The position numbers were made by a program, and so were the translations under genes. Positions 32,405 through 38,021 of a DNA stretch of 51,807 bases are shown piece by piece. The first letter of the stretch is position 1, and the number at the start of each line of letters is the position of its first letter. The DNA comes from Candidatus Pacearchaeota archaeon (GTDB lineage Archaea; Nanobdellota; Nanobdellia; Pacearchaeales; JAPDKA01): NCBI GenBank assembly GCA_038817835.1, contig JAWAZI010000005.1:1-51807 (forward strand), written 5' to 3'. The notes below the pieces were generated by a model. The model had not been told where the DNA came from. It did not search any database and saw only the letters and a list, made by a program, of their open reading frames with translations.

Positions 32405-32821
32405 ATGTCATATAAATTTTTAGAACATACTGCAGATGCTTTATTTGAAGTTAATGCTAAAAATATAGAGAAAATATTTATTGATGCTGCTAAAGCTTTA
32501 ACAGAAATTCAAGTTAATATAAAAAAAGTTAAAAGAAAGGAAAAATATGAAATAAATATTAAAGATAAAGATATAGAGCAATTATTATTTAATTGGTTAT
32601 CTGAGTTGATATTTGTTAAAGATACAAAACAATTAATATTTAGTAAATTTGATGTAAAAATAGAGAAAAATGATTATTATATTTTAAAAGCAATTTGTTA
32701 TGGAGAAAAAATAAACCCAAAACAAGAACCAAAAGCTGATGCAAAAGCAATAACAATGCATGAATTTAAATTATGGAAAGAAAATTCTATATGGAAGGCA
32801 AGAGTTTTGGTTGATATTTAA
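32405..32821 (+). CDS. Archease (RtcB cofactor)
   Basis: YKFLEHTAD, LLFNWLSEL, AKAITMH, VLVDI. Confidence 0.95.
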   Translation: MSYKFLEHTADALFEVNAKNIEKIFIDAAKALTEIQVNIKKVKRKEKYEINIKDKDIEQLLFNWLSELIFVKDTKQLIFSKFDVKIEKNDYYILKAICYGEKINPKQEPKADAKAITMHEFKLWKENSIWKARVLVDI

Positions 32822-33555
32822 ATTGTTTTTTTTATTAGTTCTTGCATATCACTTATGAATATATCTGCTTTTTTTATAATTTCATCTAATAGTTTGCCAT
32901 CTATTTCTTTTATTTCATTATGTTCAAATTTTTTATAAGTTTCATAAATTAATTTAAAAGCATCTAATGTTTTTTTACTTATTAATCTCTTTTTAAAAAA
33001 TTGTTTTTCTAACAAATTTGGAATTTGTTTTGGGACAATAAAATATATATTTTTTGCAATTAATGCAGCTTCTGCGGCATCTATTACTGCACTATATATC
33101 ATTGATAAAACCTCTATTTTTATATTTTTTATTTCTATATTATTTATTCTAACTTGATTCATAAGTTTAAATAATGCTTCTTTTGTTCCTCTTATTTCAC
33201 CTTTATCAATAAGTTTTTTTATAGGTTTTAAGAAATTTGATGGATCATATAAACATTTAGCTTTTTTTATTTCTAAGAAAACATCAATTTTATTTTCTAA
33301 AATTTCATCATAGTATTCTGTTATTGGTTTTATAATAATATGTATTGGTTTTTTTGCTTCTTTTTTTATTTTTATACAAATTTTAGTTAAATAATCTTTT
33401 ATTTTTTCTATTTTTTCTTTTTTTGTTTTTAGATCATCAACCAAAACAACGAATAAATCTTCTCCTTCTATACTTAAAAGCCATATGGCCTTTATTTCTT
33501 TTTTATATTTTTTTAATATTAATTCTTTAAAGTTTTCTATAACTTTTTCTTTCAT
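32818..33555 (-). CDS. Degenerate minimal nucleotidyltransferase (MNT)-like + HEPN-like domain protein
   Basis: IKAIWLL..DLFVVLVDD lacks GS and DxD; LYDPSNF hinge; YSAVIDAAEAALIAK...YKKFEH HEPN-like helices. Confidence 0.6.
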   Translation of the reverse strand: MKEKVIENFKELILKKYKKEIKAIWLLSIEGEDLFVVLVDDLKTKKEKIEKIKDYLTKICIKIKKEAKKPIHIIIKPITEYYDEILENKIDVFLEIKKAKCLYDPSNFLKPIKKLIDKGEIRGTKEALFKLMNQVRINNIEIKNIKIEVLSMIYSAVIDAAEAALIAKNIYFIVPKQIPNLLEKQFFKKRLISKKTLDAFKLIYETYKKFEHNEIKEIDGKLLDEIIKKADIFISDMQELIKKTI

Positions 33556-34592
33556 TTTTTTTGTAAAATTTCATTTATTGCTGCTTCAAGCATTTTTATA
33601 TAAATTTTATCTATCTCTTCTTCTATTTCTTTTTTTTCTTTTACTAATTTATACATTTTTTTTATAATTTCATAATGTTGTCTCTCAATTAAATTTGTAT
33701 CTACAAAATATTTTTTAAAAAGTTCTATTTTTTCTTTTTCATCTTTTGGTATTTCTTTTATTTTTAGAGATAATGCAGAATCACATAATTTTATAATGTA
33801 ATCATAACTTTCTTTTATTTCTTTTTCTCTAATTTTTTTCTCTAATTTTATTATTATATCCTCACTTACTCTTATATAATAGGATACTCTTTTACTCCAT
33901 AAATCTATCTCGCTTGCTTTAAACTCACTCATAGTACCTTTTGCAATTTTTTCATTTATTTTAATTAGTTCATCATACCATTCAATAAATATATCACTGA
34001 TTCCCAATTCATTTTTATTTTTTATTAGCATATCTCTAGTTTCATTTGCAGAAACTGTATAAATTGAGAGAAAACTTAGCATAATTTGACTTGCAGTTGT
34101 CATGGTATTTAATAATAACCATGCAGCTTTAGCTAATTCATTTCTTACAGAAATAAATCTTTCAACAGCCCTTGTTATTAATTTTTCTACTTTTAGATCT
34201 ATAGAGTATAGTTTACTTTTCCTTAATAATTTTTTTATTGTTTTTATAAATTCTGTATTATCATAAAGAATAATACTATCTTTTAAAGCAGATATGGCCC
34301 ATGGTTCACCTTCTTTAATTAATTTCCACCATAAACTTATCGGTTTTGGTGGTTGGAAATGTAATATCAATTCTTCTTTTTTTGCTTTTGTAGTTATTAA
34401 TTCTTGGAAAAAATTTATTTTTTCTAATTCAGGATTTTCTAGGCTATCATCATAAATAACTAATATATCAATATCATGTCCTTTTTGTATTCCTTTTCTT
34501 ACAGAACTTCCATAAATAAAAATTGATCTAACACTATTAATCTTTTTTAATGGAGCTACTAAATTGTCGATTTTTTGTTTTAATTCTTGCAT
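33552..34592 (-). CDS. Pol beta-family minimal nucleotidyltransferase + HEPN-like domain(s)
   Basis: FIYGSSVR..HDIDILVIYDD intact MNT motif; LYDNTEF hinge; two helical HEPN-like segments without a clear Rx4-6H. Confidence 0.75.
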   Translation of the reverse strand: MQELKQKIDNLVAPLKKINSVRSIFIYGSSVRKGIQKGHDIDILVIYDDSLENPELEKINFFQELITTKAKKEELILHFQPPKPISLWWKLIKEGEPWAISALKDSIILYDNTEFIKTIKKLLRKSKLYSIDLKVEKLITRAVERFISVRNELAKAAWLLLNTMTTASQIMLSFLSIYTVSANETRDMLIKNKNELGISDIFIEWYDELIKINEKIAKGTMSEFKASEIDLWSKRVSYYIRVSEDIIIKLEKKIREKEIKESYDYIIKLCDSALSLKIKEIPKDEKEKIELFKKYFVDTNLIERQHYEIIKKMYKLVKEKKEIEEEIDKIYIKMLEAAINEILQKK

Positions 34593-34823
34593 TAATTTTT
34601 TAATTTTTATCTTATTTAAATTTTTTGAAAAATTTTTTATTTTTTTAAGTTAATAAATTTAAGTTAATAAGTTAATTATAAATATAAAATATAAATTAAT
34701 AAAATTCAGGCTATAGCAATCACGAAATAACTTGAGAATTTATCTATTCCTACTTTAATTTTTTATTCTTATTTTATTTAAATTTCAAACTTAACTTTTT
34801 AAATTTAAAAAATTTTATTTATA

Positions 34824-36524
34824 ATGGCTATTGAATTTTCTTTTTTAAATTTGACACAGACTCAATCAATTTTGATAACAATTTCTTTAATTATAATTGT
34901 CTCAGCAATTTTATCATATATATCATATTTGTTGAGACAAAATTTAATTATAGCTTATATTTTAACTGGTATTATTCTAGGCCCTTTAGTTTTTGGTTTA
35001 ATTAAAGATAAAATCTTAATTAATGGACTTGCCGAGATTGGTATAACTTTTTTATTATTTATTGCAGGATTAGAGTTTAGTATTAAAAAATTAAAGGAAA
35101 TTGCTAAAACTTCTATTATAACTGGATTAATTCAAGTAATTGGAGTTAGTATTTTAACTTTTTTTGTTTTATTTTTATTTGGTTTTAATAAAATTGAAGC
35201 AATTCTTTTGGGATTTATAATTTCATTTAGTTCTACAGTTGTTGTAATTAAAATACTTTCAGATAAAAATGAGTTGGATAGTTTACAAGGAAAGATAGTA
35301 GTTGGTATCATGCTAGTTCAAGATATTATAGCTTTAATTATTTTAGGAATTTTATCTAAAAATATTTCATCAATTTTTATAAATTTTGTAAAATTAATTT
35401 TTATTTCTTTATTTGCTCTTTTTATTAATATTATAACAAAACCAATAATAAAAAAATCTTCTTCTTCATCAGAGCTTTTATTTGTTATTTCATTAGCTTT
35501 TCTTTTTTTATTTGTTTCAATTACTTATTTTTTAGAATTATCAATAGGAATAGGTGCTTTTTTAGCTGGGATAATTTTAGCAAATACTCCTTACAAAATT
35601 GATATTGCAACAAAAATAAAATATTTGAGAGATTTTTTTTCAATTATTTTCTTTGTTTTTATAGGTTTATGGTTGACAAATATATCTAAAAATATTTTAA
35701 TTTTGACAATTCCAATATTTTTTATTTTATTATTTTTTGAGCCTATATTAACAGCTATAATTTTAAGGTTTAATGGATATAAAATTAATAGTTCACTTGA
35801 TATAGGTTTTTCTTTTGCTCAAATTAGCGAGTTTAGTTTAATAATTATTTTATATTCTTTAAATTTAGGTATAGTTTCACAAAAATCTTTTGAGTTAATA
35901 ATTTTAATTGCAGTTATCTCAATTGCTTTAACCCCATATACTATGAAACTTTCAAAATTATTCTATAAGCCATTTAAAATTTTTGATGAGCTGAAGATAC
36001 CATTTGTTGAAGATATTGGATATTTAACTAAAGGTAAGAAAACAGTATTAATTATAGGTTGTCATAGGATGGGATCAATTTATGTTAAAGAATTAGAGAA
36101 AATAAAAGATAGATTAATTGTTATAGACTTTAATCCAGATATAATTAAAGCATTAGAAAGAAAAAATATCTCTGCAGTTTATGGTGACGTTTCTAATATA
36201 GAAATATTCGAAAAACCACAATTAAAGAATCAATTATTAAATTTACGTGTTGTTATATCTACAATACCAATAAAAGAAATAAATGAAAAAATTATTGAAT
36301 ACTTTAAAAAATTAAATAAAAATATTTTCATAGCTGTAACTTCCAATAGAATAGATGATTCTCTTGAACTTTATGATAAAGGAGCAGATTTTGTTATAAT
36401 GCCTTTAGTGATGTCAGCAATGCATAGTATTGATATGATAAAAAAATTAACTAAAAAACAATTTAAAAAATTAAAGAAAGAGCAAATAGAAATTTTAAAA
36501 GAAATACATAAAATTCTATATTAA
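34824..36524 (+). CDS. CPA2 cation:proton antiporter with C-terminal RCK/TrkA-N domain (Kef-like)
   Basis: FSSTVVVIKIL, LVQD, LGAF-like IGAFLAG, QISEFS; IIGCHRMG, VIDFNP, YGD. Confidence 0.92.
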   Translation: MAIEFSFLNLTQTQSILITISLIIIVSAILSYISYLLRQNLIIAYILTGIILGPLVFGLIKDKILINGLAEIGITFLLFIAGLEFSIKKLKEIAKTSIITGLIQVIGVSILTFFVLFLFGFNKIEAILLGFIISFSSTVVVIKILSDKNELDSLQGKIVVGIMLVQDIIALIILGILSKNISSIFINFVKLIFISLFALFINIITKPIIKKSSSSSELLFVISLAFLFLFVSITYFLELSIGIGAFLAGIILANTPYKIDIATKIKYLRDFFSIIFFVFIGLWLTNISKNILILTIPIFFILLFFEPILTAIILRFNGYKINSSLDIGFSFAQISEFSLIIILYSLNLGIVSQKSFELIILIAVISIALTPYTMKLSKLFYKPFKIFDELKIPFVEDIGYLTKGKKTVLIIGCHRMGSIYVKELEKIKDRLIVIDFNPDIIKALERKNISAVYGDVSNIEIFEKPQLKNQLLNLRVVISTIPIKEINEKIIEYFKKLNKNIFIAVTSNRIDDSLELYDKGADFVIMPLVMSAMHSIDMIKKLTKKQFKKLKKEQIEILKEIHKILY

Positions 36525-36554
36525 AATTTAAAAATAATTTTTATATTTTTTAGT

Positions 36555-38021
36555 ATGGTGAGTGAAGATAAATTAAAAATTATAAAAAAAATTTCAGATA
36601 CTGTTTGGGAAATTCCAAAAAGTTATAAAGGTTTTATGAGGGTTCCTGGAAGAATAATTGCTAATCAAAAATTGCTCTTAGAGATGGACGATGCTGTTAT
36701 TGAACAAACAGCAAATGTAGCATCTTTGCCAGGAATTGTTGGTTATAGCTTTGCAATGCCAGATGCCCATTGGGGATATGGTTTTCCTATTGGTGGTGTT
36801 GCAGCTTTTGATGTTAATAATGGTGGAGTAATAAGTCCTGGTGGTATAGGTTTTGATATTAATTGTGGTATGAGATTAGTTAGAACTGATCTAACAATTG
36901 ATGATGTTAAACCTAAAATTAAAGAATTAATAGATAATTTATTTGAGAGAGTTCCATGTGGGGTTGGTAGTAAAGGATTTTTAAAACTTAATAAGCAAGA
37001 ATTTAAACAACTTTGTGAAGAAGGGGCTTTATGGATAGTAGATAAAGGTTTTGGTTGGAAAGAAGATTTGGAAACAACTGAGGAAAATGGTTGTATGGAA
37101 GGAGCAGATGCTAATAAAGTTAGTGAAAAAGCAATAGAGAGAGGCATAGACCAAGTTGGTACTCTTGGTAGTGGAAATCATTATTTAGAAATTCAATGGT
37201 TAAAACCAGAAAATATTTTTGATGAAAAACTAGCTAAAAAATGGGGACTTTTTCCAAATCAAGTTGTTATTATGTTTCATTGTGGCTCTAGAGGTTTTGG
37301 GCATCAAGTTGCAAGTGATTATTTACAAATATTTTTGAGAGTTATGGAAAGTAAATATGGAATAAAAATATTAGATAGAGAACTTGCAGCAGCTCCTTTT
37401 TATAGTAAGGAAGGACAAGATTATTTTGCTGCAATGAAATGTGCAATGAATATGAGTTTTGCAAATAGACAATTAATTTTGCATAGAATTAGAGAAGTTT
37501 TTGAGAAAGTTTTTAAAAAAGATGCTGAAAGTTTAGGAATAAAGCAAGTTTATGATGTTGCTCATAATTCTGCAAAATTAGAAAAGCATGAATATAATGG
37601 AAATAAAATTGATTTACTAGTGCATAGAAAAGGAGCAACAAGAGCTTTTGTTGCAGGAATGAAAGAAATTCCGAAAAAATATATTGATGATGGGCAGCCA
37701 GTAATTATAGGTGGTTCTATGGAAACAGGGAGCTATTTGCTAGTTGCTTTACCAAAAGCAAAAGAAACTTTTTATAGTACTGCACATGGTTCTGGAAGAA
37801 CTATGAGTAGAGAAAAAGCAAAGAAAATTGTAAAAGGAAAAGAATTAATTGAGAAATTAGAAAAAAGAGGAATTTATGTTAGAGCTGTTAGTTATTCTGG
37901 TGTAGCAGAGGAAGCAGGATTAGCTTATAAAAATATTGATGAAGTTGCAGAAGTTACAGAACTTGCAGGAATAAGTAAAAGAATAGCCAAGCTTATACCT
38001 ATAGGAAATATAAAAGGTTAA
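36555..38021 (+). CDS. rtcB: RNA-splicing/repair ligase RtcB
   Basis: MPDAHWGYGFPIG, DINCG, GSGNHY, HCGSRG, YDVAHN, HRKGAT, HGSGR; no intein. Confidence 0.97.
   Translation: MVSEDKLKIIKKISDTVWEIPKSYKGFMRVPGRIIANQKLLLEMDDAVIEQTANVASLPGIVGYSFAMPDAHWGYGFPIGGVAAFDVNNGGVISPGGIGFDINCGMRLVRTDLTIDDVKPKIKELIDNLFERVPCGVGSKGFLKLNKQEFKQLCEEGALWIVDKGFGWKEDLETTEENGCMEGADANKVSEKAIERGIDQVGTLGSGNHYLEIQWLKPENIFDEKLAKKWGLFPNQVVIMFHCGSRGFGHQVASDYLQIFLRVMESKYGIKILDRELAAAPFYSKEGQDYFAAMKCAMNMSFANRQLILHRIREVFEKVFKKDAESLGIKQVYDVAHNSAKLEKHEYNGNKIDLLVHRKGATRAFVAGMKEIPKKYIDDGQPVIIGGSMETGSYLLVALPKAKETFYSTAHGSGRTMSREKAKKIVKGKELIEKLEKRGIYVRAVSYSGVAEEAGLAYKNIDEVAEVTELAGISKRIAKLIPIGNIKG

Follow-up and report, generated by a model that had tools for sequence, protein, structure and literature searches.

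In this study, two adjacent minus-strand genes, here named A (346 amino acids, aa) and B (245 aa), were analysed in a 51,807-nucleotide (nt) contig of a Candidatus Pacearchaeota archaeon (JAWAZI010000005.1, assembly GCA_038817835.1; the whole stretch is referred to as the window), where they lie between the genes for archease and the RNA ligase RtcB. Both genes encode proteins that combine a minimal nucleotidyltransferase (MNT) domain with a HEPN-like domain, and the two catalytic signatures have been lost reciprocally. We propose that A and B form one asymmetric nucleotidyltransferase (NTase) complex of two subunits, built from two copies of a fused MNT-HEPN protein that have diverged. In this complex, A would hold the sole working nucleoside triphosphate-binding and catalytic centre (GSx10DxD), and B would be a pseudo-enzyme that has kept the fold and supplies the HEPN-face residues Tyr207, Lys208, Glu211 and His212, which A has lost. 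We infer a physical heterodimer, a composite site and an enzymatic activity, and the whole reading, an asymmetric live/dead MNT-HEPN complex whose location reflects ancestral synteny, is given a probability of about 0.6.

To our knowledge, few two-gene modules of archaea are more abundant than those of the MNT-HEPN kind, and almost all work on them has dealt with the toxin-antitoxin form. The A/B pair is a variant of this already known kind, and the locus represents its 'domesticated' form with a clean reciprocal loss of two catalytic signatures. What is new here is the reciprocal motif pattern, the natural A-B fusions and the membership of A and B in a family of four subfamilies. Moreover, the pair and its fused relatives provide a directly testable case of the evolution of an enzyme and a pseudo-enzyme from a homodimer.

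Reciprocal motif loss, adjacency and natural fusions

The NTase signature GSx8-14DxD was present in 17 of 18 A-type proteins and in none of the 16 B-type proteins. Conversely, the motif [YF]KxxE[HY] was found in 15 of the B-type proteins and in no A-type protein. The single exception on each side comes from one and the same pair, that of genome G225 (L018, G225:C20:714-2385), in which the A-like protein lacks GS/DxD and the B-like protein reads FNDYEF in place of YKxxEH, so that both sites have been lost. This pattern suggests either that the two sites were lost jointly or that the scaffold plays a part other than catalysis.

A and B were neighbours on one strand in all of the at least 13 lineages examined, separated by anything between an overlap of 26 nt and a gap of 30 nt. 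In the window, the TGA stop of A and the ATG start of B overlap as ATGA, which was read directly in the sequence and agrees with the gene coordinates, as the original prediction had stated; the two genes may thus be translationally coupled. A variant order was observed in G269 and G102, where B comes first and is followed by a short A-type protein of 253 aa that lacks the second HEPN repeat (L017, G269:C1, 6301-7865; G102:C9:3611-5007). These swapped loci are flanked by GatE-like and AspRS-like genes, which were named by eye from their N-terminal sequences.

Furthermore, a search of 1.84 billion representative sequences with the B profile revealed natural A-B fusions in at least 11 clusters, with lengths of 596-633 aa and the B match in the C-terminal half. 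The N-terminal halves of these fusions align with the whole of the A profile, including the tail; the fusion P0153, for example, matched A over residues 6-352 with 404 bits and B over residues 371-611 with 234 bits. Five fusion sequences were read, and their B halves lack GS/DxD and carry [YW]KxxE[HY]. One fusion cluster is named Candidatus Nanohaloarchaea. By the Rosetta-stone argument, the existence of such fusions is strong evidence for one A-B complex, and the pair of the window may be the split form of the single-chain A-B protein of other DPANN archaea. On the definition adopted here, namely an intact A and a site-less B with [YFW]KxxE[HY], either paired or fused, the pair belongs to a two-module A-B family. 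An independent analogue is found in the D-type paralog discussed below, in which a degenerate NTase-like domain and an active NTase-HEPN-HEPN' unit are joined on one chain. The complementary heterodimer that had been predicted from the letters of the window alone is therefore well supported at the level of sequence, by reciprocal motif loss across lineages, by adjacency that outlasted the swap of gene order and by single-chain fusions, all of which argue that A and B work as one complex.

It could also be supposed that there is no partnership, and that B is a decaying NTase duplicate behind A. The loss of the catalytic motifs from B and the further decay of the G225 pair would fit such a history, but B is an intact protein whose 11 aligned homologs share 37-72% identity and 31 invariant columns, it is likewise intact in the other pair-bearing genomes, and it forms an old clade of its own. 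B has, in addition, been kept beside A after the order swap and joined to A in frame in the fusion clusters, and decay is regarded as very improbable.

Domain architecture of A and B

Protein A matched the Pfam families Polbeta (PF18765; E 3e-8, 34.1 bits with a cut-off of 26.9) and NTP_transf_2 (PF01909; E 4e-7, 30.9 bits with a cut-off of 21), and since both gathering scores were passed and GS...DxD is present, A is a member of the minimal nucleotidyltransferases of the Pol-beta superfamily. The residues G28, S29, H39, D40 and D42 (H39-D40-I-D42) are invariant in the alignment of A homologs (15 proteins, 46-100% identity), in agreement with the intact site that had been claimed for A. Two further claims concerning A were borne out as well. 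The protein has no HEPN His, with Lys218 at the aligned position, and it carries an extra HEPN-like tail, whose residues ~260-330 gave a match to the latter half of the family's HEPN-like domain. In most of 17 A-type proteins this match had an i-E of 7e-5 to 3e-3, and in four it was weaker; the database consisted of only 77 sequences, and these E-values are to be read as pairwise-level evidence.

Direct comparison of A with B by BLASTP gave a weak match (E 1e-4 over 87 aa). Alignment of the 15 A homologs with the 11 B homologs by hhalign, in contrast, gave a probability of 97.4% and an E of 1e-11 over 239 columns (A 3-250 with B 2-244), which shows at the profile level that A and B are paralogous across the full length of B, as had been predicted. 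B has no Pfam match, and searches of Pfam, NCBIfam and the PDB with the B sequence alone yielded nothing meaningful; only profiles and folds resolved this protein. In the alignments, GS is deleted from B, the DxD column reads E-D-L within a gapped and poorly aligned stretch, and an invariant E32 lies close by. The N-terminal domain of B nonetheless aligned with the NTase domains of the C, A and D types at hhalign probabilities of 97-99%, so that by these alignments it is a pseudo-NTase, and the loss of the motif noted in the original prediction is confirmed.

In the C-terminal domain of B, Y207, K208 and E211 of the motif YKKFEH are invariant among the 11 aligned homologs, and H212 is present in 13 of the 16 B-type proteins. 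The same columns read R-K-x-F-E-H-G, the canonical Rx4H, in X-type and many D-type paralogs, and they align with the R...DY motif of AF0298. The His of B thus does stand at the HEPN-motif position, where it had been placed, since it aligns with the Rx4H His of the D and X paralogs; the Arg, though, is replaced by Tyr in B, and by Tyr, Phe or Trp in every B-type protein and every fusion B half examined.

The AlphaFold2 (AF2) models of A and B had predicted local distance difference test (pLDDT) scores of 84.7 and 83.7, respectively, with a predicted template modelling (pTM) score of ~0.48 for both, which means that the domains themselves are confident and that the orientation between them is free. 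In Foldseek searches, the A model matched ANT(9), KNTase/ANT(4'), AadA, LinB, HalB and the MntA antitoxin (E 6e-5 to 1e-3), and the B model matched the NTase-like protein 3c18, MntA and the HEPN protein AF0298 (2hsb, template modelling score 0.71 on the target). The best PDB match of the A profile was the NTase chain of the MNT/HEPN complex 9xbd (E 3e-3), and the profile of the C-terminal domain of the family found 2hsb (E 2e-3) and the HEPN chain 9xbd_A (E 0.016). Moreover, PF05168 (HEPN) was matched by 4 of 26 family members with a best E of 6.9e-5, B itself not being among them, and homologs including P0024 are annotated by JGI as 'predicted nucleotidyltransferase / UPF0332'. The HEPN-like domain of the A/B family is accordingly similar in fold and profile to HEPN-T/UPF0332 (PF05168, COG2250). 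The fold matches, profile matches, PF05168 hits and UPF0332 labels together support the view that A and B are both MNT plus HEPN-T fusion proteins with HEPN-like C-terminal domains.

Comparison with toxin-antitoxin systems and antibiotic nucleotidyltransferases

The HEPN RNase motif Rx4-6H was found in neither protein, an aromatic residue taking the place of Arg in B and Lys the place of His in A. Because the Arg is missing from all B-type proteins and A has no His, canonical HEPN RNase activity of A or B is unlikely, and the metal-independent cleavage of RNA on which the original prediction had drawn finds no footing in these sequences. HEPN domains fused to MNTs have been described as usually inactive and 'domesticated' for substrate binding or regulation (Anantharaman et al. 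2013, PMC3710099), and the probably inactive HEPN domains of A and B fit this statement.

The closest structures and profiles of the pair belong to MntA/HepT and to MNT/HEPN complexes (7ae9, 6m6u, 9xbd), from which a type VII-like toxin-antitoxin or defence system could be envisaged, with B as a HEPN toxin that is silenced by A-dependent AMPylation, as in HepT/MntA or the fused FhepTA. Like HepT/MntA and 9xbd, which are the best matches of both halves, A and B join a Pol-beta MNT with GSx10DxD to a HEPN-T/UPF0332 four-helix domain, and in HepT/MntA the MNT acts on its HEPN partner within one complex. The patchy distribution of the pair across families, the invariant Tyr beside the HEPN motif of B, a weak PADLOC match of the N-terminal domain of A (PDC-S09, 2e-5) and the existence of fused MNT-HEPN systems (PMC13000451) would also agree with this possibility. 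However, unlike in HepT/MntA, each of the two proteins has both domains, one NTase is dead, an aromatic residue stands for the catalytic Arg in all B-type proteins, and no Tyr is present two residues past the His. Against the NCBIfam MntA equivalog model NF047752 the score was 15.9 bits, far below the cut-off of 60. The type VII layout of two small genes (MNT ~100-140 aa, HEPN ~120-150 aa) was not found either, because both genes are MNT plus HEPN fusions that are 2-3 times larger than toxin-antitoxin components (245-346 aa, compared with ~100-140 aa in HepT/MntA), and on this point the original prediction, which had set the pair apart from a classic module, was correct. In addition, the neighbourhood is of a stable housekeeping type with conserved synteny and no signs of mobile elements, and the genes of the paralogous C and D types are part of a near-universal core, which fits 'domesticated' MNT-HEPN enzymes (PMC3710099). 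FhepTA of Shewanella resembles A/B in carrying MNT and HEPN on one chain, and self-modification by its MNT has been proposed as a means of control (PMC13000451), but FhepTA has an active Rx4-6H RNase and is associated with mobile elements, whereas A/B have no such Arg, lie in a syntenic chromosomal setting and form an active/dead pair. A role in toxin-antitoxin systems or defence is considered improbable.

A small-molecule nucleotidyltransferase of the KNTase/ANT kind, acting on an antibiotic or a metabolite and completed to a dimer by B, deserves equally little credence. The best full-length folds for A are indeed ANT(9), ANT(4')/KNTase, AadA and LinB, which share with it, as does HalB, a single chain of NTase and HEPN-like helical domain; a weak NCBIfam match to ANT(9) was obtained (E 5e-6), and an MFS transporter gene is a conserved neighbour in the clade in which the pair is linked to archease and rtcB. 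Nevertheless, A does not belong to the aminoglycoside ANT(9), ANT(4') or ANT(3'') families, its score against the ANT(9) model NF012212 being 26.1 bits with a cut-off of 340 and the scores of other ANT models being lower still. The similarity is confined to the shared fold, nothing points to a small-molecule ligand, and the presence of three or four paralogs in host-dependent DPANN genomes of 0.6 Mb argues for a cellular macromolecular substrate. A also differs from these enzymes in its extra HEPN repeat. KNTase-type enzymes, moreover, work as homodimers or singly, and in them both sites are active, whereas A and B look like an obligate pair of enzyme and pseudo-enzyme.

Possible roles of B in a proposed asymmetric complex

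In the KNTase dimer, part of the active site is provided by the helical domain of the other subunit. By this analogy, the HEPN-face residues of B may complete or regulate the active site of A in trans. Alternatively, the invariant Tyr207 of B is a candidate acceptor that would be nucleotidylated by A, an option suggested by the finding that MntA modifies its partner HepT (PMC7641770, PMC13000451).

Several observations weigh against the asymmetric, enzymatically active complex favoured here. The pair is patchy, being present in about 7 of 301 sampled genomes, which would fit an accessory or selfish module as well. In 2 of the 16 B-type proteins Tyr stands in place of His212 of B, the decayed G225 pair has Phe there, and the scaffold retained in G225 without either site may have a non-enzymatic role. 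By a spacing argument from other NTases, the third metal-binding carboxylate of the Pol-beta fold, expected on the following strand, would fall on the invariant H78/Q80 of A; the nearby conserved DD of residues 48-49 might stand in for this carboxylate. The option of a composite site leans on the KNTase analogy. Finally, the order RtcB-A-B-archease has been kept across proteins that are only 50% identical, and this could still reflect function.

Genomic location and the link to archease and rtcB

The window derives from a low-GC (~24%) DPANN genome of the Pacearchaeota type with a size of 0.57 Mb. The features of the locus are listed in Table 1. The GC content across the A/B pair is 0.21, compared with 0.20-0.29 in the nearby DNA, so that base composition gives no sign of recent transfer. 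The stop codons of B and of the convergent archease gene overlap, as read directly in the sequence, and the pair is one gene, a Kef-type exchanger, away from rtcB; both points had been noted before and agree with the coordinates. No RNA gene was found in the locus, including the spacer upstream of A, with Rfam and ARAGORN.

Table 1. Features of the A/B locus and its neighbours (positions in the window)
Feature	Position	Strand	Basis
Gene A, 346 aa, active-type MNT, HEPN-T and second partial HEPN repeat	33552..34592	-	ORF (open reading frame) list, Pfam, AF2, Foldseek, homologs
A: GSSVRKGIQKGHDID, GSx10DxD nucleotidyltransferase signature	34467..34511	-	translation; invariant columns
A: first HEPN-like helical domain, aa ~131-250	33843..34202	-	family alignment, AF2 helices
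A: His-motif position, reads NEKIAKGT, Lys218 instead of His	33933-33956	-	translation, family alignment
A: C-terminal tail, aa 251-346, second partial HEPN-like repeat, common to D- and X-type proteins	33555..33842	-	C-family profile positions ~170-240
Gene B, 245 aa, pseudo-MNT and HEPN-T, proposed non-catalytic partner	32818..33555	-	ORF list, hhalign to A, AF2, Foldseek, homologs
B: degenerate NTase-like N-terminal domain, aa 1-118	33202..33555	-	alignments; no GSx8-14DxD in 16 B-type proteins
B: HEPN-T domain, aa ~125-244	32824..33183	-	Foldseek, profile searches
B: YKKFEH (Y207-K208-K-F-E211-H212)	32920..32937	-	translation, alignments
Archease, convergent with B	32405..32821	+	Pfam 4e-39
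AT-rich divergent spacer (231 nt) between gene A and Kef-type gene	34593..34823	.	sequence read
Kef-type Na/H exchanger with TrkA_N	34824..36524	+	Pfam; occupies variable slot between A and rtcB
RtcB RNA ligase (housekeeping tRNA-splicing ligase)	36555..38021	+	Pfam 4e-168

The order RtcB, one or more variable genes, A, B, archease and MFS transporter was observed in the window's own genome (G000), in G301 and G302, which belong to the same family, and in L019, L020, L005/6, L007/8 and L001/2, although some of G301/G302 and the L contigs may represent the same lineages. The identity to the A of the window was 78% in L019, 56% in L007/8, 55% in L020, 54% in L005/6 and 50% in L001/2. In contrast, the pair is not linked to archease or rtcB in seven lineages, namely G218/L003 (L003/4), which is of the same family as the window's genome, G168, G146, G269, G102, G225 and L021, and no rtcB or archease gene was found within 8 kb of the three fusion loci L060-L062. 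Conservation of homologous pairs, which the original prediction had left to be examined, was thus observed, whereas linkage to rtcB and archease in general was not and is confined to one subclade.

The location between archease and rtcB suggested that the pair might be an accessory of RtcB-archease RNA repair or tRNA processing that tails, trims or cleaves RNA, leaving 2',3'-cyclic phosphate ends for RtcB in the last case. A precedent for an RtcB-associated NTase is RlaP (PF10127), a Pol-beta NTase of bacterial rtcB operons that adds 1-2 nucleoside monophosphates to the 3' ends of damaged RNA (PMC12776372). RlaP resembles A in that its NTase is followed by a C-terminal helical domain and is encoded beside rtcB, and the position of the pair in the linked clade, held while the A proteins diverged to 50-78% identity, would be consistent with such a role. 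However, neither A nor B gave a match to PF10127 at E <= 1, and RlaP is co-oriented inside the rtcB operons of many bacteria, whereas A/B lie antisense to both archease and rtcB and are linked to them in one subclade only, so that a conserved same-operon linkage to the RNA ligase, as in RlaP, was not found. Archease and rtcB are directly adjacent and co-oriented in G146, G269, G102, G225 and G228, and the first four of these genomes thus keep a separate archease-rtcB operon apart from their A/B pair. Moreover, the missing Arg of B and the missing His of A speak against cleavage, the junction of A and rtcB accepts unrelated insertions, and an unrelated MFS transporter gene has been kept beside archease as stably as the pair itself, from which it follows that adjacency here measures the synteny of a block. 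An RNA-repair role is hence held to be unlikely, if slightly less so than the toxin-antitoxin and small-molecule alternatives. The location of the pair looks like inherited synteny rather than a shared pathway, and the attractive account of RNA damage and repair that it invites was removed as unsupported. A CCA-adding activity was also considered and rejected, because a normal class I CCA enzyme is present in the genome (PF09249, E 1e-35), even though CCA is not encoded in its tRNA genes.

Judged from gene order, the simplest history of the location would be that the pair entered an archease-rtcB operon once, in antisense orientation, in the ancestor of one subclade. Unrelated genes (Kef, NTPase, DHH-CBS and small genes) would have been inserted later on the rtcB side, and the order would have been lost later still in some lineages. 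One of these may be G168, in which the far-side synteny (SpoIIM-enolase-Rpb6-exosome) is kept and archease lies 47 kb away.

The rtcB/A junction (34593-36554 in the window, and its equivalents) appears as an insertion hot spot, which contains a Kef-type exchanger in the window and L019, NTPase_1 in L001, DHH-CBS-DHHA2 in L007, two small genes including a MamF-like one in L020, and nothing in L005. In G225, the RtcB reading frame (G225:C9:1555-4356) is 984 aa long with a split Pfam match (1-64, 49-426), and this rtcB probably contains an intein. A Cas4/PDDEXK-like gene follows the MFS transporter beside the archease block in L005 (11759-12430) and L020 (7176-7838); within the stretches of these two contigs that were covered, no further cas gene was called.

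The MNT-HEPN family in DPANN archaea

The genome of the window encodes two further MNT-HEPN paralogs, a C type of 269 aa with NTase and HEPN domains and both signatures present (G000:C2), and a D type of 600 aa (G000:C4; L013:2745-4547, minus strand) in which a degenerate NTase-like domain is followed by an active NTase, a HEPN domain, a second HEPN repeat and a tail. With the A profile, two-domain relatives were detected in 260 of the 301 genomes of the class. For the D type alone, the homologs at 53-79% identity number more than 4,489, and they carry only the generic annotation 'nucleotidyltransferase domain-containing'. These homologs occur across Pacearchaeota, Woesearchaeota and Nanoarchaeia, and the D type appears as a strongly conserved core protein of DPANN. 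Its HEPN motif is R-K-x-F-E-H (Rx4H) in many orders, with Tyr for Arg in the order of the window.

A tree built on the core common to the family resolved A, B, C and D+X as separate clades with Shimodaira-Hasegawa-like approximate likelihood ratio test (SH-aLRT) supports of 100, 100, 91 and 83, respectively. As A and B each form one clade, the tree places their split before the several pair-bearing families and orders diverged, which makes the partnership an old one. According to this tree and the profile searches, A and B are one branch of a family of four subfamilies (A, B, the ~270-aa C and the ~600-aa D) that is near-universal in the class. The possibility that B arose by fission of a D-like gene was rejected, because the N-terminal domain of B is no closer to the dead domain of D than to active domains and the tree separates B from D.

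The C, D and X paralogs share the MNT-HEPN core with A and B, and the D type further resembles them in combining a dead with a live NTase domain and in having the second HEPN repeat seen in A. Unlike B, with its aromatic residue for Arg, the X type and many D-type proteins have the canonical Rx4H; and whereas C, D and X are single, near-universal genes, A/B represent a patchy two-module version, split or fused, with reciprocal loss of sites. It may be asked whether A/B, split or fused, together with D constitute an uncharacterised asymmetric 'one live, one dead' MNT-HEPN class that belongs to the housekeeping core of Nanoarchaeia-type DPANN archaea, acts on RNA or protein and, in the clade of the window, was perhaps recruited to RtcB-archease for work on the ends of tRNA or RNA. 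In the A/B version of such a class, the Tyr-Lys-x-x-Glu-His face of the dead subunit would be the trans half of an active site or a nucleotidylated switch. This broader proposal is held to be unlikely as well, if a little less so than the RNA-repair role. It is of interest that genome-reduced DPANN archaea keep three or four of these paralogs, one of them (D) at 53-79% identity throughout the class; the function of the whole DPANN-wide MNT-HEPN family is a more interesting question than that of the A/B pair alone.

Some neighbours of the family members were also recorded. Just upstream of the A-B fusion in L061 lies a gene for a PIN-T2SSE-KH-type ATPase (L061:5770-7572), and a gene truncated at the end of the contig (L062:1-621), which gave only a weak KH_1 match, lies at a similar upstream position in L062. 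The C-type gene (G000:C2, L011:1480-2289, minus strand; also L009:7009-9236) is directly downstream of a 451-aa ORF that was recognised by eye as an AP_endonuc_2 or xylose-isomerase-like TIM barrel. The X-type homolog P0028 follows a gene called as AP_endonuc_2, and another such gene lies 4.7 kb from the Nanohaloarchaea fusion (L062); an AP_endonuc_2-like gene may thus be a conserved partner of the MNT-HEPN family.

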